A DNA stretch of 64,000 bases, from the IMG/VR virus record IMGVR_UViG_3300022200_000036. One strand, 5' to 3'. Below, piece after piece: positions 55,333 through 61,660 of this stretch. Position 1 is the first letter of the stretch. Each line of letters begins with the position of its first letter. Source of the DNA: an uncultured virus (IMG/VR IMGVR_UViG_3300022200_000036) (lineage: Duplodnaviria > Heunggongvirae > Uroviricota > Caudoviricetes). Both the position numbers and the translations under genes were made by a program. The notes below the pieces were generated by a model, which worked only from the letters and a program-made list of their open reading frames with translations, ran no database searches and was not told the origin of the DNA.

Positions 55333-56331
55333 TTACTCCATTACAAACAGTTTGTTTGCAACGACTTGAGGTTGAGCTTGGTTCAAGATGCGCCAGGCTT
55401 GACTGGGATCCACATCCATCTGTTGCTTGAAGCTGCCCCAGAAGTTTTCAGGCTGCTGAGGAGCAGCGGCAGCAGGAGGAGCAGGGAACTGACCTAATAC
55501 CCGCTGAACAGGAGTGGTGGGATAACCGAAGGTGCCAAGTTCAGCCTCATTCTCATACACAGGATACGGACCTTCTGGACCGAAGAACTTCAGCGTGTAA
55601 TCACTGAGAACATCGGGATTGGTCAGAATCTCGTTATACGCAAGGTTCTCCTGGTGCTCGTTAACCGAAAATTCGGCATAACGATCGAGAACTTCTTGTG
55701 CTTTATGGCCCCAAGCGACGGCGCTATCCAGCATATTTTCAAGCTGGAGGGCATAGTTGTTGAGTATTGCAGGGGAGTTCCAGCCGTACGCGTCAATTAC
55801 GTTTCGACTTTCCTCGTTTAGATGCAGGTAATCGGCGATTGCGCTCTGCACTTCCATCCGCAGCTCGTTGGCTACTCCCGGAGAGGATGCCGCTAAGGAG
55901 ATTAGGGAAGAGCTGGGCGAGTAAGCCTGGTTGGGTGACCAGGTCTGCGGAGCCAATTGTTGCGTAGCTGGGTTGCTGTACAGCTGGCCGTAATTGGCTG
56001 GAGCGTACTGCGTCGTCTGTGATGGTTGACCCTGGAACGGGGATTGAACTGGACTGCTCAACAGGTTCACTACCTTGTTGAACGCCGATTCCCATGGATT
56101 GCTCGCCGCCTCCGGTTGGGATTGGGGGGCGTACTGAATAGGGGCTGATTGGTAGCTGAGGGCCGCCTGAGGCACCGCTTGGGGGTAGCTGGTACCCACC
56201 TGATATTGGACTGGACTGCCCACTGGAGCTTGGGGTGCCGGAGCTGCTGCCGGAACCACGTAATTGCTTGGAGCCACCGCCACTGGTGCTTGGCTCGTCT
56301 GTGGGATCGATTGGACGGTAGCGTCCTGCAT
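55333..56331 (-). CDS. Capsid scaffolding protein candidate
   Basis: AGGAG SD; P/Q/A-rich N-terminus, helical C-terminus; between portal and capsid. Confidence 0.7.
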   Translation of the reverse strand: MQDATVQSIPQTSQAPVAVAPSNYVVPAAAPAPQAPVGSPVQYQVGTSYPQAVPQAALSYQSAPIQYAPQSQPEAASNPWESAFNKVVNLLSSPVQSPFQGQPSQTTQYAPANYGQLYSNPATQQLAPQTWSPNQAYSPSSSLISLAASSPGVANELRMEVQSAIADYLHLNEESRNVIDAYGWNSPAILNNYALQLENMLDSAVAWGHKAQEVLDRYAEFSVNEHQENLAYNEILTNPDVLSDYTLKFFGPEGPYPVYENEAELGTFGYPTTPVQRVLGQFPAPPAAAAPQQPENFWGSFKQQMDVDPSQAWRILNQAQPQVVANKLFVME

Positions 56332-58078
56332 AACTCATCTCCTTTTGTAGAGCTTCTAAAGTTCGATACAGATATGGAGTTAGATCCAATCTTGGGTCCG
56401 CAGCCATCGGAAGATCCGGTGCTTGCGGGTGGGGAGTCTGCATCATGCCCCCCACTAACCTGGCGAACTGAGAGTAAGCACCCTGTAATTCGTTCACCAT
56501 CCTGAAAGGGAACCCAGATAACATCTCGGCCCGTTCCTCATCCGTCTTAGACGGGAAGAGGTATTTCAATGCTTCAATGCTATCAACACCTAATTCTTGC
56601 AGATTTCGTACCACGATTGAGTTATTGAGAATATCTTGGGTTGAATCTTCGTAAACAGGACCCATCCAACGCCACAAAATAGTGACATCACCATCTGGAA
56701 TAAGACCAATAACCTTGGGTGGAATTTGTTGTGTCTCCACGCAAGCCATCATCAATCGTTTGAGCATGTCATTGTATTGCTTCATCGCGTCTTCATAGGC
56801 AGCTTCTTCTTCCGGTGAAGCCTCATCTGGTAGATCTACGGGCTTCTCAAGTCCTGCTGCCATTGCAAGTGTAGTCTTGAACAATTGTTCTTCTTGATAA
56901 ATAATTAGTTCAAGACAACGACAGATGCCGTGGGTGTAAATGGCATTTGCTTTTTTCTTCGATGTCGCGGCAACGCGGCCAAAGAGAGATTTGTATTCAG
57001 TTGCGGTAACACCAGCAGAGATGGAAAGCTCATCAACGCCACCAAGAGCAGTGCGAATTTCTTCACGATACTGACGTGCAAAAGCATTTTGGTCGCCAGT
57101 GATGGCGTCTGGAACAATGTAGCCAACACGGTCGTTTGGTTCTAAATTTGCAATGACACGTGGTACACGGATCTGACCGTCCATGCCACGACTGACTGGA
57201 TCAGATTTAAACATCGACCTACTCATCGGTGATGGGCTTGTGAATCCAGAGTTTGCTGCGATTGATGGACGCTGAATTGTGGTGTCACCACCGGCTTCCA
57301 TCAGGTCTGTCTTGGGACGAGAAGACAATAATGTTGGGTTACCAAAGAATGTAATGTTCTTGCGCATGGTGCGCATCAAGTCATCATGCGTGCAGATGTG
57401 ATTAGCAAGGGCATCAAACTCACCAGTACCTTCATTTGAAAACCCTTGAGTATTGTTAATGATCTCAACGCATGGAATAAAACCAAGGCTATTTTTTAAC
57501 TGCTTGGTATTACCCGTAAGCGCATAAGTTGGCATGTCAAAATTTAATTCAGAATCTGAATGCGTCTCTTCGATTTCTTTTGCTTTAATTGCCAAGCGAA
57601 TGTAACGTTTGGCTCCAGGACTATAGCTACTTTGATTGCCTGTAATATTTGTTGTATTAATTTGATCGCCAAAACCATTACCTTTACGCACCTTGTAGCT
57701 ATAGATGATTACAACCTCATCCAGCTCGCCATCAACGTTGTAATAGGCACGATATTCATGATCACGAAAGTAGTAAAGCCTATAGCTTTGTTTCGTGGGA
57801 CGGATGTAAAAAAGACCTTTGCCATCACACAAAAAATACTCCCAGATCGAATCTAGGCGTGTATCCATTTTGTTGTACTTGAGCACACGGTCGATAAAGT
57901 CCTTGCGTTGTGCACCGAAGTTGTCTTGAGATGGAAAGAACTCAACTCCTTGGCGAATGCCAAAAAGTTTCATCTGAGCAATATGCGACGCAACAATGCC
58001 CGTATCGACAACAATATCGCTGTCCTTATCCAGGTAAGCGTTAATAATCTCTTGTAAACGGGCTTTAGCGTCGGCCAT
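55793..58078 (-). CDS. Portal protein with a long C-terminal overlap into the scaffold gene
   Basis: Size and position between terminase and scaffold/capsid; LGFIPCVEI.N...G.GEF; the last ~180 aa are low complexity. Confidence 0.75.
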   Translation of the reverse strand: MADAKARLQEIINAYLDKDSDIVVDTGIVASHIAQMKLFGIRQGVEFFPSQDNFGAQRKDFIDRVLKYNKMDTRLDSIWEYFLCDGKGLFYIRPTKQSYRLYYFRDHEYRAYYNVDGELDEVVIIYSYKVRKGNGFGDQINTTNITGNQSSYSPGAKRYIRLAIKAKEIEETHSDSELNFDMPTYALTGNTKQLKNSLGFIPCVEIINNTQGFSNEGTGEFDALANHICTHDDLMRTMRKNITFFGNPTLLSSRPKTDLMEAGGDTTIQRPSIAANSGFTSPSPMSRSMFKSDPVSRGMDGQIRVPRVIANLEPNDRVGYIVPDAITGDQNAFARQYREEIRTALGGVDELSISAGVTATEYKSLFGRVAATSKKKANAIYTHGICRCLELIIYQEEQLFKTTLAMAAGLEKPVDLPDEASPEEEAAYEDAMKQYNDMLKRLMMACVETQQIPPKVIGLIPDGDVTILWRWMGPVYEDSTQDILNNSIVVRNLQELGVDSIEALKYLFPSKTDEERAEMLSGFPFRMVNELQGAYSQFARLVGGMMQTPHPQAPDLPMAADPRLDLTPYLYRTLEALQKEMSYAGRYRPIDPTDEPSTSGGGSKQLRGSGSSSGTPSSSGQSSPISGGYQLPPSGASGGPQLPISPYSVRPPIPTGGGEQSMGIGVQQGSEPVEQSSSIPVPGSTITDDAVRSSQLRPAVQQPSYATIGSADLVTQPGLLAQLFPNLLSGILSGSSQRAADGSAERNRRLPASKRGKSKRN

Positions 58079-58735: not shown

Positions 58736-61273
58736 CTAGTAATCAACCTGTAGTTTTCCTTTGCGCATCAAACCGTTAATGACCCAAACCAAGCTATCGA
58801 CGCAATCGTCGTGACTGCTAATACCAAAGTTCGTCAGCTCTTCGAACATTGCCGTGAAGTTACGGAATCGATTGAAAATTATCTTACGATCTTCAAAAAG
58901 ACCCATGCAACCACGGAAACGCGCAAGTTTATCGGCGCGGAATCCTTTGACTGCGTGCCAATTTAAGTTATAAAGATTTTCATTGTTTAAACAAACACGC
59001 TTGAAGTCTGATTCAAGAGAAGCCTGGTATTGCACAGCTTCTGAATAAATATCGCATGTGGAGTAGGTCGGATAGTAATTTCCGTTTTCGTCACGTCCCA
59101 CGATAGACCAATCATTAAGAAGTTCTTTAAGGGCATCCAGCTTTTCAAGGTTGCCCATGACACGCAACCGGCGGTAATCAATCACGTGAATCTGATCGCC
59201 AATTCGACCGGCAAGCGTCATTACCGTGTAATCATTCTTTTCTTTTGTACCAGCAGATAGGTCGACTCCCACAGCAATCGTATCGAACTCAGTGGCGATC
59301 TCGGCTTTTATAATAAGCTCTGGTGCCAAGGACAGTTCATTCTGTCTGATCACCTGATTCATGTACTGGAACGAGAAGGCAATAGGTGCTTGCCTCTTCT
59401 TTTCTTTCAGGTAATCCAGTGACCACATCTCAGGCCAATACGAGACTTCGTCCCCTGTTTTAGGGTCGTTCAAGATGGCGGACAACACAATTTGAATCCA
59501 GTTGTTTTGTGGGTTGAATGTTGTGGAGTGAATATCGTCATGTCTGAAGCGCGTACCAAGACAGATGGCACGTCCACCCTCAAACATTGTTGGTGCAATC
59601 ACCGCATTCCAGTTCTCCTGCATCTGTTTACGGATGTCAGGGTTAGAAATATCTGCAGCTGACTTGATCGCGTCATCAATTATGCAATTCAAAACATTTA
59701 AACCATTAGCGATAAAGTTGTGGTCTAAATGCTCTACTTCTAGGTCATAGACGAACTCCTCTCTTTCGCTAAGAAACTCAACTCTGGAAACGGGCTCGGG
59801 CGACCAGCCTTGTCCGTTACCTGATGATGCGCCACATGACACTGGCGACATAATGTAATCAAATTTTGCGGGATATTGTTTGTCTTTTTGTGGTCGATAT
59901 GATGTACGCAAAGATTTGTCCTGGACGTTCCGTTGCTTAATAACAACTTCCGCTCCTTTGTATTGCATCCAACGCAAGTAAAATTGTCCCTTTCCAAAAT
60001 CAACGGTCTCATTTCCTGAAAATCGTTGGAACTGCAGCCGTGTTGGTAATTGCTGTTCCCAGTCTTTTTCATTCGCCGTGAATGAAGGTGATTCGCACAC
60101 TCCCGCGAGCAACAAGTTGTTTTGTGACTGACTGGTCGAAATAATGCTTGACAAACTGGACAAGATTTTTCCTGAAGCTTTCGTGATGCTGCTCCAGTAC
60201 ACTGATGGCTGCAACAAATCACTAATGGATTTTTTGAAAGACGTTGGGATAAGCGATTTGAGGTTACGCAAAACTGTTGGCCACACTGCGGACAAGTTGG
60301 CCTTACCTGAAAAGCCTGTGTTGTACGAAAACAAGCCTCGCAGATACGTTGTGTTTTTTTCTTTGGCCCCCCGCAGGAAAGACAGTTCTTTATCTTGTCT
60401 CCTGTTGGATGCTCTGACAAGGACATCCCCTGCACTAAGATCTCCCGCCCTCTTTTGTTTTCCGTCTTGCGTAACGAAAGGGTGCTCGGGAGTTGCTGAA
60501 ATACGATTTCCAGAGGCTGTTGTAATGTCAACAATGCCTTTGGTAAAACGCCTTGTAACTGCCCCCACGTTGCTCCAATCAATTTGATTTGTTTCTGAGT
60601 TTCTAACAGCAATTTGGTATTGGTCTGGATCTTCATAAATAGCTTTAATTGGCACTTGACCAACGTTGGTCGTAACTAGTGTATCACCTGTCAAGCACAA
60701 GTGCGAGCGCTTAGAAGTCACGGAGCCCTTGAGGCCAGCAGCGCAGAGTGTGAATTGTTCTTCACCAGTGGTGTCAATACCTGCAAACCTGTGATCAATA
60801 GACCAATACTCATTGCTGGTAACGTTCTTGAGTAGCCGTACCTTTGGAAAAACTTCTTGGTAGCGCTTGCTTTCAATGATTCGTTTAATCGTTGCAGACT
60901 TAGATCGAGCAATATCGACTGTGTAGGAAAGATAAAGAATTTGTAGCGGCATTTTTGCCATGGTGTGAACACCAATAGCCCATGCCGTAAACAACCCAAG
61001 GACGGTACTTTTGGCGGAGCCCCTCGGCGCCAAGAGATCAACATTTGGACCGGCAATCTTTATCAAACAATTACTATCATTGCCGGTAACAAACTGTCTA
61101 TGCCATTCTTTGTGGTGAGCGGCTGGTGGTTTATCTGCTACATACTCACAAAAGAACCCAAAATCTTCCCGTGCTTTCTCCAGGGATTCAAGATTTCGTG
61201 GAACTCGAATTTGTTGCCTGCGTGCAGCAGCCTGTGCGTTACGTCGGTAAGCAAGGTGTTGATAAGCAGGCAT
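58736..61273 (-). CDS. terL: Terminase large subunit precursor containing an intein (508 aa after splicing)
   Basis: Walker A APRGSAKS; Walker B HL|CIIDD; GTRFRHDD; nuclease GVDLSA...DYT...HDDCVDS. Confidence 0.93.
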   Translation of the reverse strand: MPAYQHLAYRRNAQAAARRQQIRVPRNLESLEKAREDFGFFCEYVADKPPAAHHKEWHRQFVTGNDSNCLIKIAGPNVDLLAPRGSAKSTVLGLFTAWAIGVHTMAKMPLQILYLSYTVDIARSKSATIKRIIESKRYQEVFPKVRLLKNVTSNEYWSIDHRFAGIDTTGEEQFTLCAAGLKGSVTSKRSHLCLTGDTLVTTNVGQVPIKAIYEDPDQYQIAVRNSETNQIDWSNVGAVTRRFTKGIVDITTASGNRISATPEHPFVTQDGKQKRAGDLSAGDVLVRASNRRQDKELSFLRGAKEKNTTYLRGLFSYNTGFSGKANLSAVWPTVLRNLKSLIPTSFKKSISDLLQPSVYWSSITKASGKILSSLSSIISTSQSQNNLLLAGVCESPSFTANEKDWEQQLPTRLQFQRFSGNETVDFGKGQFYLRWMQYKGAEVVIKQRNVQDKSLRTSYRPQKDKQYPAKFDYIMSPVSCGASSGNGQGWSPEPVSRVEFLSEREEFVYDLEVEHLDHNFIANGLNVLNCIIDDAIKSAADISNPDIRKQMQENWNAVIAPTMFEGGRAICLGTRFRHDDIHSTTFNPQNNWIQIVLSAILNDPKTGDEVSYWPEMWSLDYLKEKKRQAPIAFSFQYMNQVIRQNELSLAPELIIKAEIATEFDTIAVGVDLSAGTKEKNDYTVMTLAGRIGDQIHVIDYRRLRVMGNLEKLDALKELLNDWSIVGRDENGNYYPTYSTCDIYSEAVQYQASLESDFKRVCLNNENLYNLNWHAVKGFRADKLARFRGCMGLFEDRKIIFNRFRNFTAMFEELTNFGISSHDDCVDSLVWVINGLMRKGKLQVDY
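59687..60697 (-). mobile_element. Intein, 337 aa (residues 193-529 of TerL)
   Basis: Block A CLTGDTLV; block B TPEHPF; block F VYDLEV..HNFIANG; C-terminal VLN followed by Cys+1. Confidence 0.92.
59740..60426 (-). CDS. Zinc-finger HNH endonuclease in the +1 frame inside the intein
   Basis: 228 aa with several CxxC repeats, then ILERDNFTCVGC...LCVHHIDH.K.NN..QNLITLCRQCH..HH. Confidence 0.85.
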   Translation of the reverse strand: MSLSEHPTGDKIKNCLSCGGPKKKTQRICEACFRTTQAFQVRPTCPQCGQQFCVTSNRLSQRLSKNPLVICCSHQCTGAASRKLQEKSCPVCQALFRPVSHKTTCCSRECANHLHSRRMKKTGNSNYQHGCSSNDFQEMRPLILERDNFTCVGCNTKERKLLLSNGTSRTNLCVHHIDHKKTNNIPQNLITLCRQCHVAHHQVTDKAGRPSPFPELSFLAKERSSSMT

Positions 61274-61303
61274 CTTATGCAGTAATCAGCGTATTACTGA
61301 ATA

Positions 61304-61660
61304 CTACCTTATTTTCCCTCGTTGTTGCCTTTCTTCTTCTGTTCCTTGTACTTGCGAGCTTTCTCCAAAGCGGCCTTCCTCTTCTCGTTGTCCGACATCT
61401 CGCTGCCGTCCTTGTTCTTGGCCTCTTTCTTCTTGAAGTGCTCCAGTAGTTCTGGAGGCATCTTGTTCTTGCTCATTGGCTTTCTTTTCCATTAAGGCAT
61501 TCATCACTTCTTGCCCTTGAGAAACCTTTTGGGCAATTGGTGTTGGACGACGCACACCAGCATGCTGCTCGCGATTCTTCTGTAGTTTACGTACTACATC
61601 AGCCATGCGGCCAGCAATATTTTCACCAAAAACTGGTGGCTGCGGCGATGGTTTTTCCAT
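61304..61660 (-). CDS. Hypothetical protein; its 3' part overlaps the basic ORF
   Basis: 118-aa ORF; contains IAGRM. Confidence 0.5.
   Translation of the reverse strand: MEKPSPQPPVFGENIAGRMADVVRKLQKNREQHAGVRRPTPIAQKVSQGQEVMNALMEKKANEQEQDASRTTGALQEERGQEQGRQRDVGQREEEGRFGESSQVQGTEEERQQRGKIR
61309..61476 (-). CDS. Small basic protein; not in the ORF track
   Basis: MSKNKMPPELLEHFKKKEAKNKDGSEMSDNEKRKAALEKARKYKEQKKKGNNEGK. Confidence 0.55.
   Translation of the reverse strand: MSKNKMPPELLEHFKKKEAKNKDGSEMSDNEKRKAALEKARKYKEQKKKGNNEGK

Follow-up and report, generated by a model that had tools for sequence, protein, structure and literature searches.

An intein in a viral large terminase gene with a predicted HNH endonuclease in its overlapping +1 reading frame

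The window analysed here is a stretch of 64,000 nucleotides from an uncultured virus (Duplodnaviria; Heunggongvirae; Uroviricota; Caudoviricetes; IMG/VR record IMGVR_UViG_3300022200_000036), and the element in question lies within its gene for the large terminase subunit (terL; 58736-61273 on the minus strand, which is the strand of all features given below). The best explanation of the data, held with a probability of roughly 0.85, is that terL carries one mobile unit of two overlapping genes, namely an intein read in the terL frame (frame 0) and a separate HNH endonuclease read in the +1 frame of the same DNA. An earlier reading of the window made from its letters alone (the sequence-only reading) had proposed a dual-coding element of this kind, and its core was supported, as both frames are open and selection is frame-specific.

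The intein and the reading frame it encloses

According to the list of open reading frames (ORFs) and their translations, terL is one unbroken reading frame encoding 845 residues. Its product matches Pfam Intein_splicing with 59.3 bits (curated cut-off 35.8) across TerL residues 205-525 and Terminase_6C with 34.1 bits (cut-off 22.6). The N-extein (60698-61273; 192 residues) comprises the N-terminal part of the ATPase and ends ...KRSHL, its limit being given by the position of CLTGD in the translation, and the C-extein (58736-59686; 316 residues plus the stop codon) starts with Cys+1 and the Walker B motif (C-IIDD), at the point where intein-less alleles read KRSHL-V-IIDDA. Between the two lies an intein of 337 residues (59687-60697; TerL residues 193-529), inserted directly before Walker B of terL (HL-C-IIDD). 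It runs from Cys1 of the starting CLTGD to Asn337 of the terminal ...NGLNVLN and is followed by Cys+1 and the IIDD of Walker B. A split intein or fractured gene was ruled out, since terL is a single ORF of 845 codons.

The residues of a class-1 intein are present in the window (C1, T69-P-E-H72 as the TxxH of block B, N337 and Cys+1), and C1, T69-x-x-H72 and N337 are invariant across 15 inteins of the subfamily, all of which are exactly 337 residues long with zero insertions or deletions although they are only 37-57% identical in the intein frame. The N-terminal splicing lobe (residues 1-98, blocks A and B; 60404-60697; frame-0 identity 0.60-0.68) and the C-terminal splicing lobe (residues 296-337, blocks F and G; 59687-59812) were modelled with AlphaFold2 at predicted local distance difference test (pLDDT) values of 73-93 over both, those of the C-terminal lobe being ~89-91, which supports a HINT fold. 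A Foldseek search with the intein model gave 60 matches at E <= 0.001, the best being the Ssp DnaB mini-intein (6frg; E 2.3e-7, rmsd 1.6, 97 columns), and the matches listed were inteins or related Hint-type domains (a bacterial intein-like domain and hedgehog autoprocessing domains). As terL is essential and the intein interrupts its Walker B motif, the intein would be expected to splice. The 197 residues between the lobes (residues 99-295; 59813-60403) form a linker that is open but unconserved in the intein frame and is predicted to be disordered (pLDDT <50), and Pfam and PHROG searches with this linker gave no nuclease or other family match, in agreement with the sequence-only reading, in which it had no recognisable domain.

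Within the intein, the +1 frame has no stop between TTG 60663 and the TAG at 59740-59742. In the sequence-only reading this ORF was started at ATG 60426, which is embedded in the GAT GTC codons of G-D-V, and ended at the TAG within CTA GAA of YDLEV; these coordinates and those of the intein were all reproduced. The most likely extent of the HNH ORF is, however, 59740-60636, that is, 298 residues (MKIQTNTK...) and the TAG, for reasons given below. In this numbering, three zinc-ribbon modules (CxxC...CxxC, CxxC...CxxxC) occupy residues 85-180 (60097-60384), with cysteines 85, 88, 99, 102, 115, 118, 142, 146, 159, 162, 176 and 180 invariant among 16 relatives, and an HNH (beta-beta-alpha-metal) catalytic domain occupies residues 193-298 (59743-60060). 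The catalytic and zinc-binding core of the latter (C221, C224, H245, H246, N254, N258, C263, C266, H267, H270 and H271) is invariant in the alignment of 16 sequences, which contains no internal gap, and also in 40 distant relatives. PHROG HNH families match the +1 protein (best phrog_1271, E 2.1e-15), Pfam DZR_2 matches the zinc ribbons at E 3.7e-5, under its cut-off, and HNH_3 is matched at E <= 0.01 by 13 of the 16 relatives. The AlphaFold2 model of the protein has a mean pLDDT of 76.7; a Foldseek search with it returned no match at E <= 0.001, though HNH proteins headed the list, and a PDB profile search returned nothing meaningful (one chance match, E 0.5). A zinc-ribbon HNH endonuclease with predicted activity is thus a credible assignment for the +1-frame product, its fold and catalytic residues being present, and the multi-CxxC HNH protein described in the sequence-only reading is upheld by the family matches and invariant residues. 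Called proteins matching the nuclease numbered only six in a collection of 5.8 billion proteins.

Frame-specific selection and the start of the nuclease

The same layout was found in an isolate, Synechococcus phage S-EIVl, whose terL is 70.8% identical to that of the window in nucleotides and whose +1-frame protein is 62.6% identical over residues 1-297 of the 298-residue form. A nuclease scan of viral contigs yielded 35 loci sharing the layout at 55-100% identity. The terL frame was open in all 35 and the HNH frame was open over 303-334 codons in 29; the other six are either cut by contig ends (L033, L035 and L036) or decayed with terL open, L021 by a stop in the nuclease and L037 and L038 by an internal deletion removing the zinc ribbons. 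A codon alignment of 28 terL genes, 23 of them distinct, was reduced to 14 representatives with less than 97% nucleotide identity for analysis. Excluded from it were L022, L029, L037 and L038, in which the length of terL differs owing to a second intein or a deletion, L007, L027, L033, L035 and L036, which meet contig ends, and L002 and L003, which are too distant.

The most variable codon position in this alignment was terL position 3 in the exteins (0.57) and terL position 1 in the overlap (0.52), the latter being the third position of the HNH codons, and wobble variability was back at terL position 3 from alignment column 495 on. In the exteins, the identity was 0.68-0.71 in frame 0 with a difference of 0.61 at four-fold sites, against 0.35-0.36 and 0.22 in frame +1. 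Over the linker (columns 279-505), the corresponding values were 0.377 and 0.141 in frame 0 and 0.628 and 0.568 in frame +1. An off-frame background of 0.34-0.36 was obtained from extein frames +1 and +2, so that the linker is at background in the intein frame. Over columns 209-279, both frames are conserved, with values of 0.60 and 0.159 in frame 0 and 0.62 and 0.365 in frame +1. Four-fold sites of the intein frame are frozen between columns 209 and 505 only, as seen in columns 209-279 (p = 3.9e-14, Mann-Whitney test against the exteins) and in columns 279-480 (p = 1.3e-28), the median per-column difference being 0 in frozen columns versus 0.644 in the exteins, and this freezing is absent before the ATG at 60636 (columns 188-208, p = 0.3) and after the TAG (columns 506-525, p = 0.55). 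The selection pattern predicted in the sequence-only reading, purifying in the HNH frame and amounting to stop avoidance only in the intein-frame linker, is the one seen (0.628 versus 0.377).

The openness of the intein frame was assessed by keeping the HNH protein fixed, permuting its synonymous codons and counting stops in the intein frame. A mean of 13.6 stops was expected using the ORF's own codons and 15.4 using the codon usage of the window; the actual sequence has none, and with neither type of shuffle did any of 20,000 replicates leave the intein frame open. With zero stops against about 14 expected, the intein frame is actively kept open. In the reverse test, in which the linker protein was fixed, 0.05-0.2% of shuffles had an open +1 frame. 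For codon usage, a 761-residue ORF downstream of terL (55793-58078) was taken as a structural gene; the C-terminal ~200 residues of its product are a Ser/Gly/Pro-rich low-complexity tail.

The stretch was present in 20 runs of 11 studies, and three metagenome contigs from studies other than that of the window cover the region: X7 (1159 nt, 1 difference, 0 gaps) and X9 (1128 nt, 15 differences, 0 gaps) extend across the whole intein and X5 (890 nt) is identical to the window. No insertion or deletion was listed over the region in four runs from four studies.

Of 26 loci, 22 have ATG at a conserved start codon (site 1; 60634-60636) that lies across the intein codons ATT TAT GAA (I-Y-E); among 23 distinct sequences it is ATG in 20 and ATA in three, and the Tyr codon is TAT in all 23. 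The ATG proposed in the sequence-only reading (site 2; 60424-60426), a possible alternative start giving 228 residues, is kept in only 6 of the 26 loci, the codon elsewhere being AAA, AAC or ATT. Because four-fold freezing extends from 60636 to the TAG only, the +1 coding signal corresponds to the 298-residue protein, and gene callers gave products of 298 and 300 residues on other contigs. The HNH ORF therefore most likely starts at ATG 60636 and not at 60426. It follows that the nuclease does not cover exactly the central linker, as had been claimed, but also overprints some 70 codons of the N-terminal splicing lobe (60427-60636), where its N-terminal extension lies on intein residues 21-91 including block B. 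Both frames are conserved and both are predicted by AlphaFold2 to fold in this overlap, which corresponds to columns 209-279 between the two ATGs, the HNH extension being beta-rich (pLDDT 69-89), and these ~70 codons appear to encode the N-terminal splicing lobe and the nuclease N-terminal extension together.

The same element might alternatively have a nuclease starting at ATG 60426, in which case the constraint upstream would represent an initiation region or an RNA or DNA signal. This ATG is present in the window and is the only one available in L012, L013 and L019, where site 1 is ATA, little precedes the first zinc ribbon in the brucellaphage ORF discussed below, and the 228-residue form already includes all zinc ribbons and the HNH domain. 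However, in addition to the counts at the two sites and the products chosen by gene callers, +1 openness and four-fold freezing span all 70 codons from site 1, the match to S-EIVl begins at residue 1 of the 298-residue form, and L012, L013 and L022 have a GTG or TTG soon after site 1. The shorter form was accordingly judged improbable, although it retains some weight.

The insertion site in intein-bearing and intein-less phages

Among the best 80 relatives of the window C-extein (90-100% identical), an intein is absent from 76, which read KRSHL-V-IIDDA and have C-extein identities of 90-95%, three are intein copies identical to the window, and one lacks the motif. The argument for transfer was based on identity tables. 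The exteins of the nearest intein-less terL relatives are 92-95% identical to those of the window (94-95% for the N-extein), and the other intein-bearing terL genes have extein identities of 85% or less; for the L023 group, the values relative to the window are 50-51% for the exteins, 59% for the intein N-terminal lobe and 57% for the HNH protein. A second scan of 80 loci around L023 gave 48 empty sites (Val), 16 inteins, six intein-less sites with Cys+1 and ten loci without the motif. Four of the 16 intein alleles (L132, L133, L138 and L139) are mini-inteins of ~180 residues with a dead +1 frame and terL open. The intein-less Cys+1 alleles (L127, L142, L149, L152, L153 and L193) read KRAHL-C-[FLI][IV]DD, and the C-exteins of L127 and L023 are 96% identical; such alleles may be the footprint of precise intein loss, or pre-adapted or resistant alleles. 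Another of the 16, in L170 (2-2533), is a divergent intein at the same Walker B site; this intein ends ...SSDLVLVSN|C and again has a full zinc-ribbon HNH protein in its +1 frame.

Empty and occupied sites were also found within samples. Summed contig depth was far higher on the extein flanks than on the intein (for X9, up to 7319 versus 16.9), and at precisely the insertion site, short contigs of the same samples cease to match the window and run on into an intein-less junction, indicating that intein-plus and intein-minus alleles co-occur. No HNH copy was detected by tblastn in 77 intein-less loci (477,529 nt around terL) or elsewhere in the window, and the HNH protein is found only together with the intein. 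A sporadic distribution with empty, full, decayed and lost states fits homing.

A second terL intein of ~400 residues, located in the P-loop (..LSPRG|...|SAKST..), was observed in L022 (924-4685), L029 (921-4679) and L038 (963-4268), and also in L165, L168, L169, L172 and L178; it is not present in the window. It has in-frame LAGLIDADG-like motifs (LLGDGGL, DTDGT), and its first residue is Pro rather than Cys.

The nuclease family extends well beyond these phages. A profile of 16 nucleases matched 9,680 cluster representatives at E <= 0.001, 655 of them at E <= 1e-10. Many share the tail ...SMTSKWKE..TSLQ.KYSSTTA, which results when intein blocks F and G (..YDLxV..NFFANGxLVHNC) are read in the +1 frame; the strict pattern of this tail was present in 53 of 153 examined proteins (150 listed matches and three others). 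A second profile, built from 40 tail-bearing proteins, fetched 61 viral loci. In 56 of them the nuclease match lies, in the +1 frame, entirely within a long host ORF; the five exceptions fall among the six weakest matches (E 2e-16 or worse). In 52 of 55 re-examined loci, ...N|C is followed by a Walker-B-like DD, and in 39 of these 52 the nuclease ORF ends one or two codons beyond Cys+1 and so has nearly the same extent as the intein. Of 50 loci scanned for the C-terminal part of the host protein, 37 have a terminase nuclease domain there, 33 of them above the Pfam cut-off. Brucellaphage Pr, Gordonia phage Clown and S-EIVl have the same site (...N|C-[hydrophobic]-DD) and the same +1 phase. Judged by its insertion site, phase and homologous nuclease, the element of the window thus belongs with the brucellaphage-type terL Walker-B inteins. 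The further interpretation that the overlap is an old, stable two-frame element of single origin, rather than a transient accident in which a nuclease gene settled in a dispensable linker, is slightly favoured on balance. Such an element would range over cyanophages, brucellaphages and actinophages as well as dozens of uncultured viruses, its HNH proteins being as little as ~30% identical, and in the lineage of the window ~70 codons would be under double purifying selection.

It was also considered that the HNH protein may not be a homing endonuclease, and may instead serve the phage, in the manner of the terminase-associated HNH packaging factors (Kala et al., 2014, as cited in PMC4422536), or act as a weapon against co-infecting phages. 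The protein sits inside terL, a functional link with the terminase was raised by the authors of PMC4422536, and there is one weak PHROG match to a 'terminase small subunit' family (E 4.4e-4). However, in the closest terL relatives, whose exteins are 94-95% identical, the 3.5 kb flanking each side of the terL match used to retrieve the locus contain no such HNH protein, which indicates that packaging does not need it, and a terminase-associated HNH packaging factor was rejected as a candidate because no homologue occurs near terL in the 77 intein-less relatives (477,529 nt). The protein always travels with the intein, and it is dead or deleted in L021, L037, L038, L132, L133, L138 and L139, where terL is open. 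Cutting a competitor's terL and homing are, moreover, not mutually exclusive. Little credence was therefore given to a function other than homing.

Expression, proposed mechanism and known systems

Synthesis of the nuclease is most simply explained by translation starting internally on the terL mRNA. A +1 frameshift, offered as an option in the sequence-only reading, is unlikely given that the intein frame is kept open, that a start codon has been conserved at site 1 and that most relatives have stops in the +1 frame 10-14 codons ahead of it. Programmed frameshifting (+1 in, possibly -1 out), which would place the nuclease within the terL/intein polypeptide, could draw on the +1 frame being open for nine codons before site 1 (from 60663) and on the database protein P0037 (498 residues), which runs from the terL N-extein and intein start into the HNH frame. 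However, a stop-free intein frame through the whole linker would be needless if ribosomes left it, no conserved slippery motif was seen in the aligned DNA, and P0037 is a single cluster that may contain an indel; this route was judged very improbable. Both P0037 and P0137 switch between the terL/intein and nuclease frames in one ORF, and these switches may be natural indels, frameshifted copies or sequencing errors.

That two compensating indels hide an in-frame HNH intein, or that the +1 ORF is a decaying pseudogene, was considered scarcely credible, since decay does occur in some relatives but nothing favours indels, the independent contigs X5, X7 and X9 cover the region without gaps, an indel-hidden in-frame nuclease would leave ~14 stops in the present intein frame, the window ORF is full length with all invariant residues, and the isolates S-EIVl, the brucellaphages and Gordonia phage Clown share the same +1 phase; the compensating assembly errors named in the sequence-only reading as grounds for refutation are thereby excluded.

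Several observations weigh against the interpretation as a two-gene mobile unit. The penultimate intein residue of the window is Leu (...VLN) rather than His; a penultimate His in block G is canonical, yet not universal, and inteins of relatives end in VLN, TLN, VGN or VSN and those of the wider family in VHN. With Leu at this position, splicing efficiency is not assured. The Pfam HNH and HNH_3 models score only ~16 bits for the window copy, where the cut-offs are 21.4 and 24.8. Four of the 26 loci (L012, L013, L019 and L022) lack an ATG at site 1; of these, L012, L013 and L022 have the GTG or TTG 4-8 codons downstream and L019 has a +1-frame sequence identical to that of L012. The predicted fold of the N-terminal extension rests on 16 sequences, and the +1 conservation there is partly forced by frame-0 block B, QLPSTLS being the +1 reading of ATPEHPF; the real evidence for overlapping coding lies in the frozen synonymous sites and the conserved openness. 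The sporadic distribution also fits repeated loss. As to expression, no Shine-Dalgarno-like sequence precedes either ATG (60636 or 60426), and a signal scan of 59600-61400 gave two promoter-like sites against 2.2 expected, none of them on the minus strand before the HNH start, as well as no terminator-like site. None of the 20 runs containing the stretch is on record as RNA; run X20, guessed to be RNA, has short contigs over 59717-60279, which are uninformative on frames.

Internal initiation, splicing, cleavage and homing are deduced from sequence, and the following course of events is proposed. In frame 0, ribosomes on terL would make the 845-residue precursor with its class-1 intein; the splicing lobes would fold together, the disordered passenger linker of ~200 residues looping out, and the intein would excise itself to restore a 508-residue TerL with an intact Walker B (HL-C-IIDD). 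In frame +1, translation would also begin internally on this mRNA, most likely at AUG 60636, and yield a separate protein of 298 residues in which an N-terminal extension, short and beta-rich, is followed by three zinc ribbons and the HNH nuclease domain. By analogy with homing endonucleases, this protein would cut or nick intein-less terL (KRSHL|VIIDD) in co-infected cells, and repair from the intein-bearing allele would copy the whole element in, changing Val to Cys at the +1 position.

Inteins are usually described with an in-frame homing endonuclease. The present family suggests that splicing and homing can occupy two overlapping genes over long divergence, and the doubly constrained stretch of 70 codons would be a compact natural case of two folded domains sharing one DNA sequence. 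As standard annotation does not see out-of-frame nucleases, the inteins that contain them are probably being classed wrongly, as mini-inteins or as inteins in decay.

The sequence-only reading had not regarded an intein with a hidden out-of-frame nuclease as a recognised class. This did not hold, as such elements are annotated in brucellaphages, have been in print since 2015 (PMC4422536) and appear in preprints of 2025 and 2026. In the brucellaphage genome NC_019447, gp07 is annotated as terL with 'intein present' and the nested gp08 as 'putative HNH endonuclease', and this arrangement in phages Tb, Pr and relatives is discussed in Virol J 2015 (PMC4422536), of which the available text contains no selection analysis. 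As in the window, the brucellaphage intein occupies the terL site before Walker B (...HN|C-VIIDD), its HNH protein is read from the intein strand in the +1 frame and is a homologue of that of the window (28% identity, E 4e-16, residues 47-281, tblastn), and its linker is open yet meaningless in the intein frame. Unlike the brucellaphage element, that of the window comes from a cyanophage group of the S-EIVl type, has an ORF with a longer N-terminal extension over the splicing lobe that stops inside block F and not further on, and has Leu rather than His as the penultimate intein residue. The Walker-B terL intein had been named TerL1-e by Kelley et al. (2016), who did not remark on the second frame.

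Actinophage inteins with an endonuclease in a separate frame are described in a 2025 preprint, in which an endonuclease VII-like type (IPR004211) in 'frame 3' is presented as unreported. There too, the nuclease ORF lies in another frame of the same strand, many of the inteins are in terL and their middle part is structureless. An origin by invasion of an intein by a free-standing endonuclease gene is proposed in that preprint, and the persistence of the layout of two overlapping genes over long divergence supports nuclease gain of this kind. A cyanobacterial dnaX intein with an out-of-frame LAGLIDADG endonuclease (Phillips, DeSimone, Gogarten; bioRxiv 10.64898/2026.09.14.751524) resembles the window element in having splicing and homing in separate overlapping frames, frame-dependent selection, a drop in synonymous change of the extein frame over the overlap, a disordered intein-frame middle and a sporadic distribution; it differs in residing in a cellular gene and in encoding a LAGLIDADG nuclease in the '+2ORF' frame.

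The ShiLan domain of actinophage DNA methylases (Genes 2025, PMC11855218), which is the hidden HNH of actinophage methyltransferases mentioned in the sequence-only reading, is likewise an out-of-frame HNH in an insertion that is open in the host frame; however, that insertion has no detectable splicing domains, whereas the window nuclease is enclosed by a complete intein. In fractured genes, a free-standing endonuclease gene lies between the halves of a split intein (Dassa et al., 2009, PMC2677866). They share with the window a separately translated endonuclease gene lodged in intein-coding DNA, but in the cases described there the host gene consists of two ORFs joined by trans-splicing, whereas terL of the window is continuous. 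The element of the window is thus a further example of a layout already in print. What the present analysis adds is a revised start for the nuclease, the finding that its overlap with the splicing lobe is constrained in both frames, evidence that the +1 phase and the insertion site stay the same even between very distant phages, and the occurrence of empty, full, decayed and lost states all within this cyanophage group.

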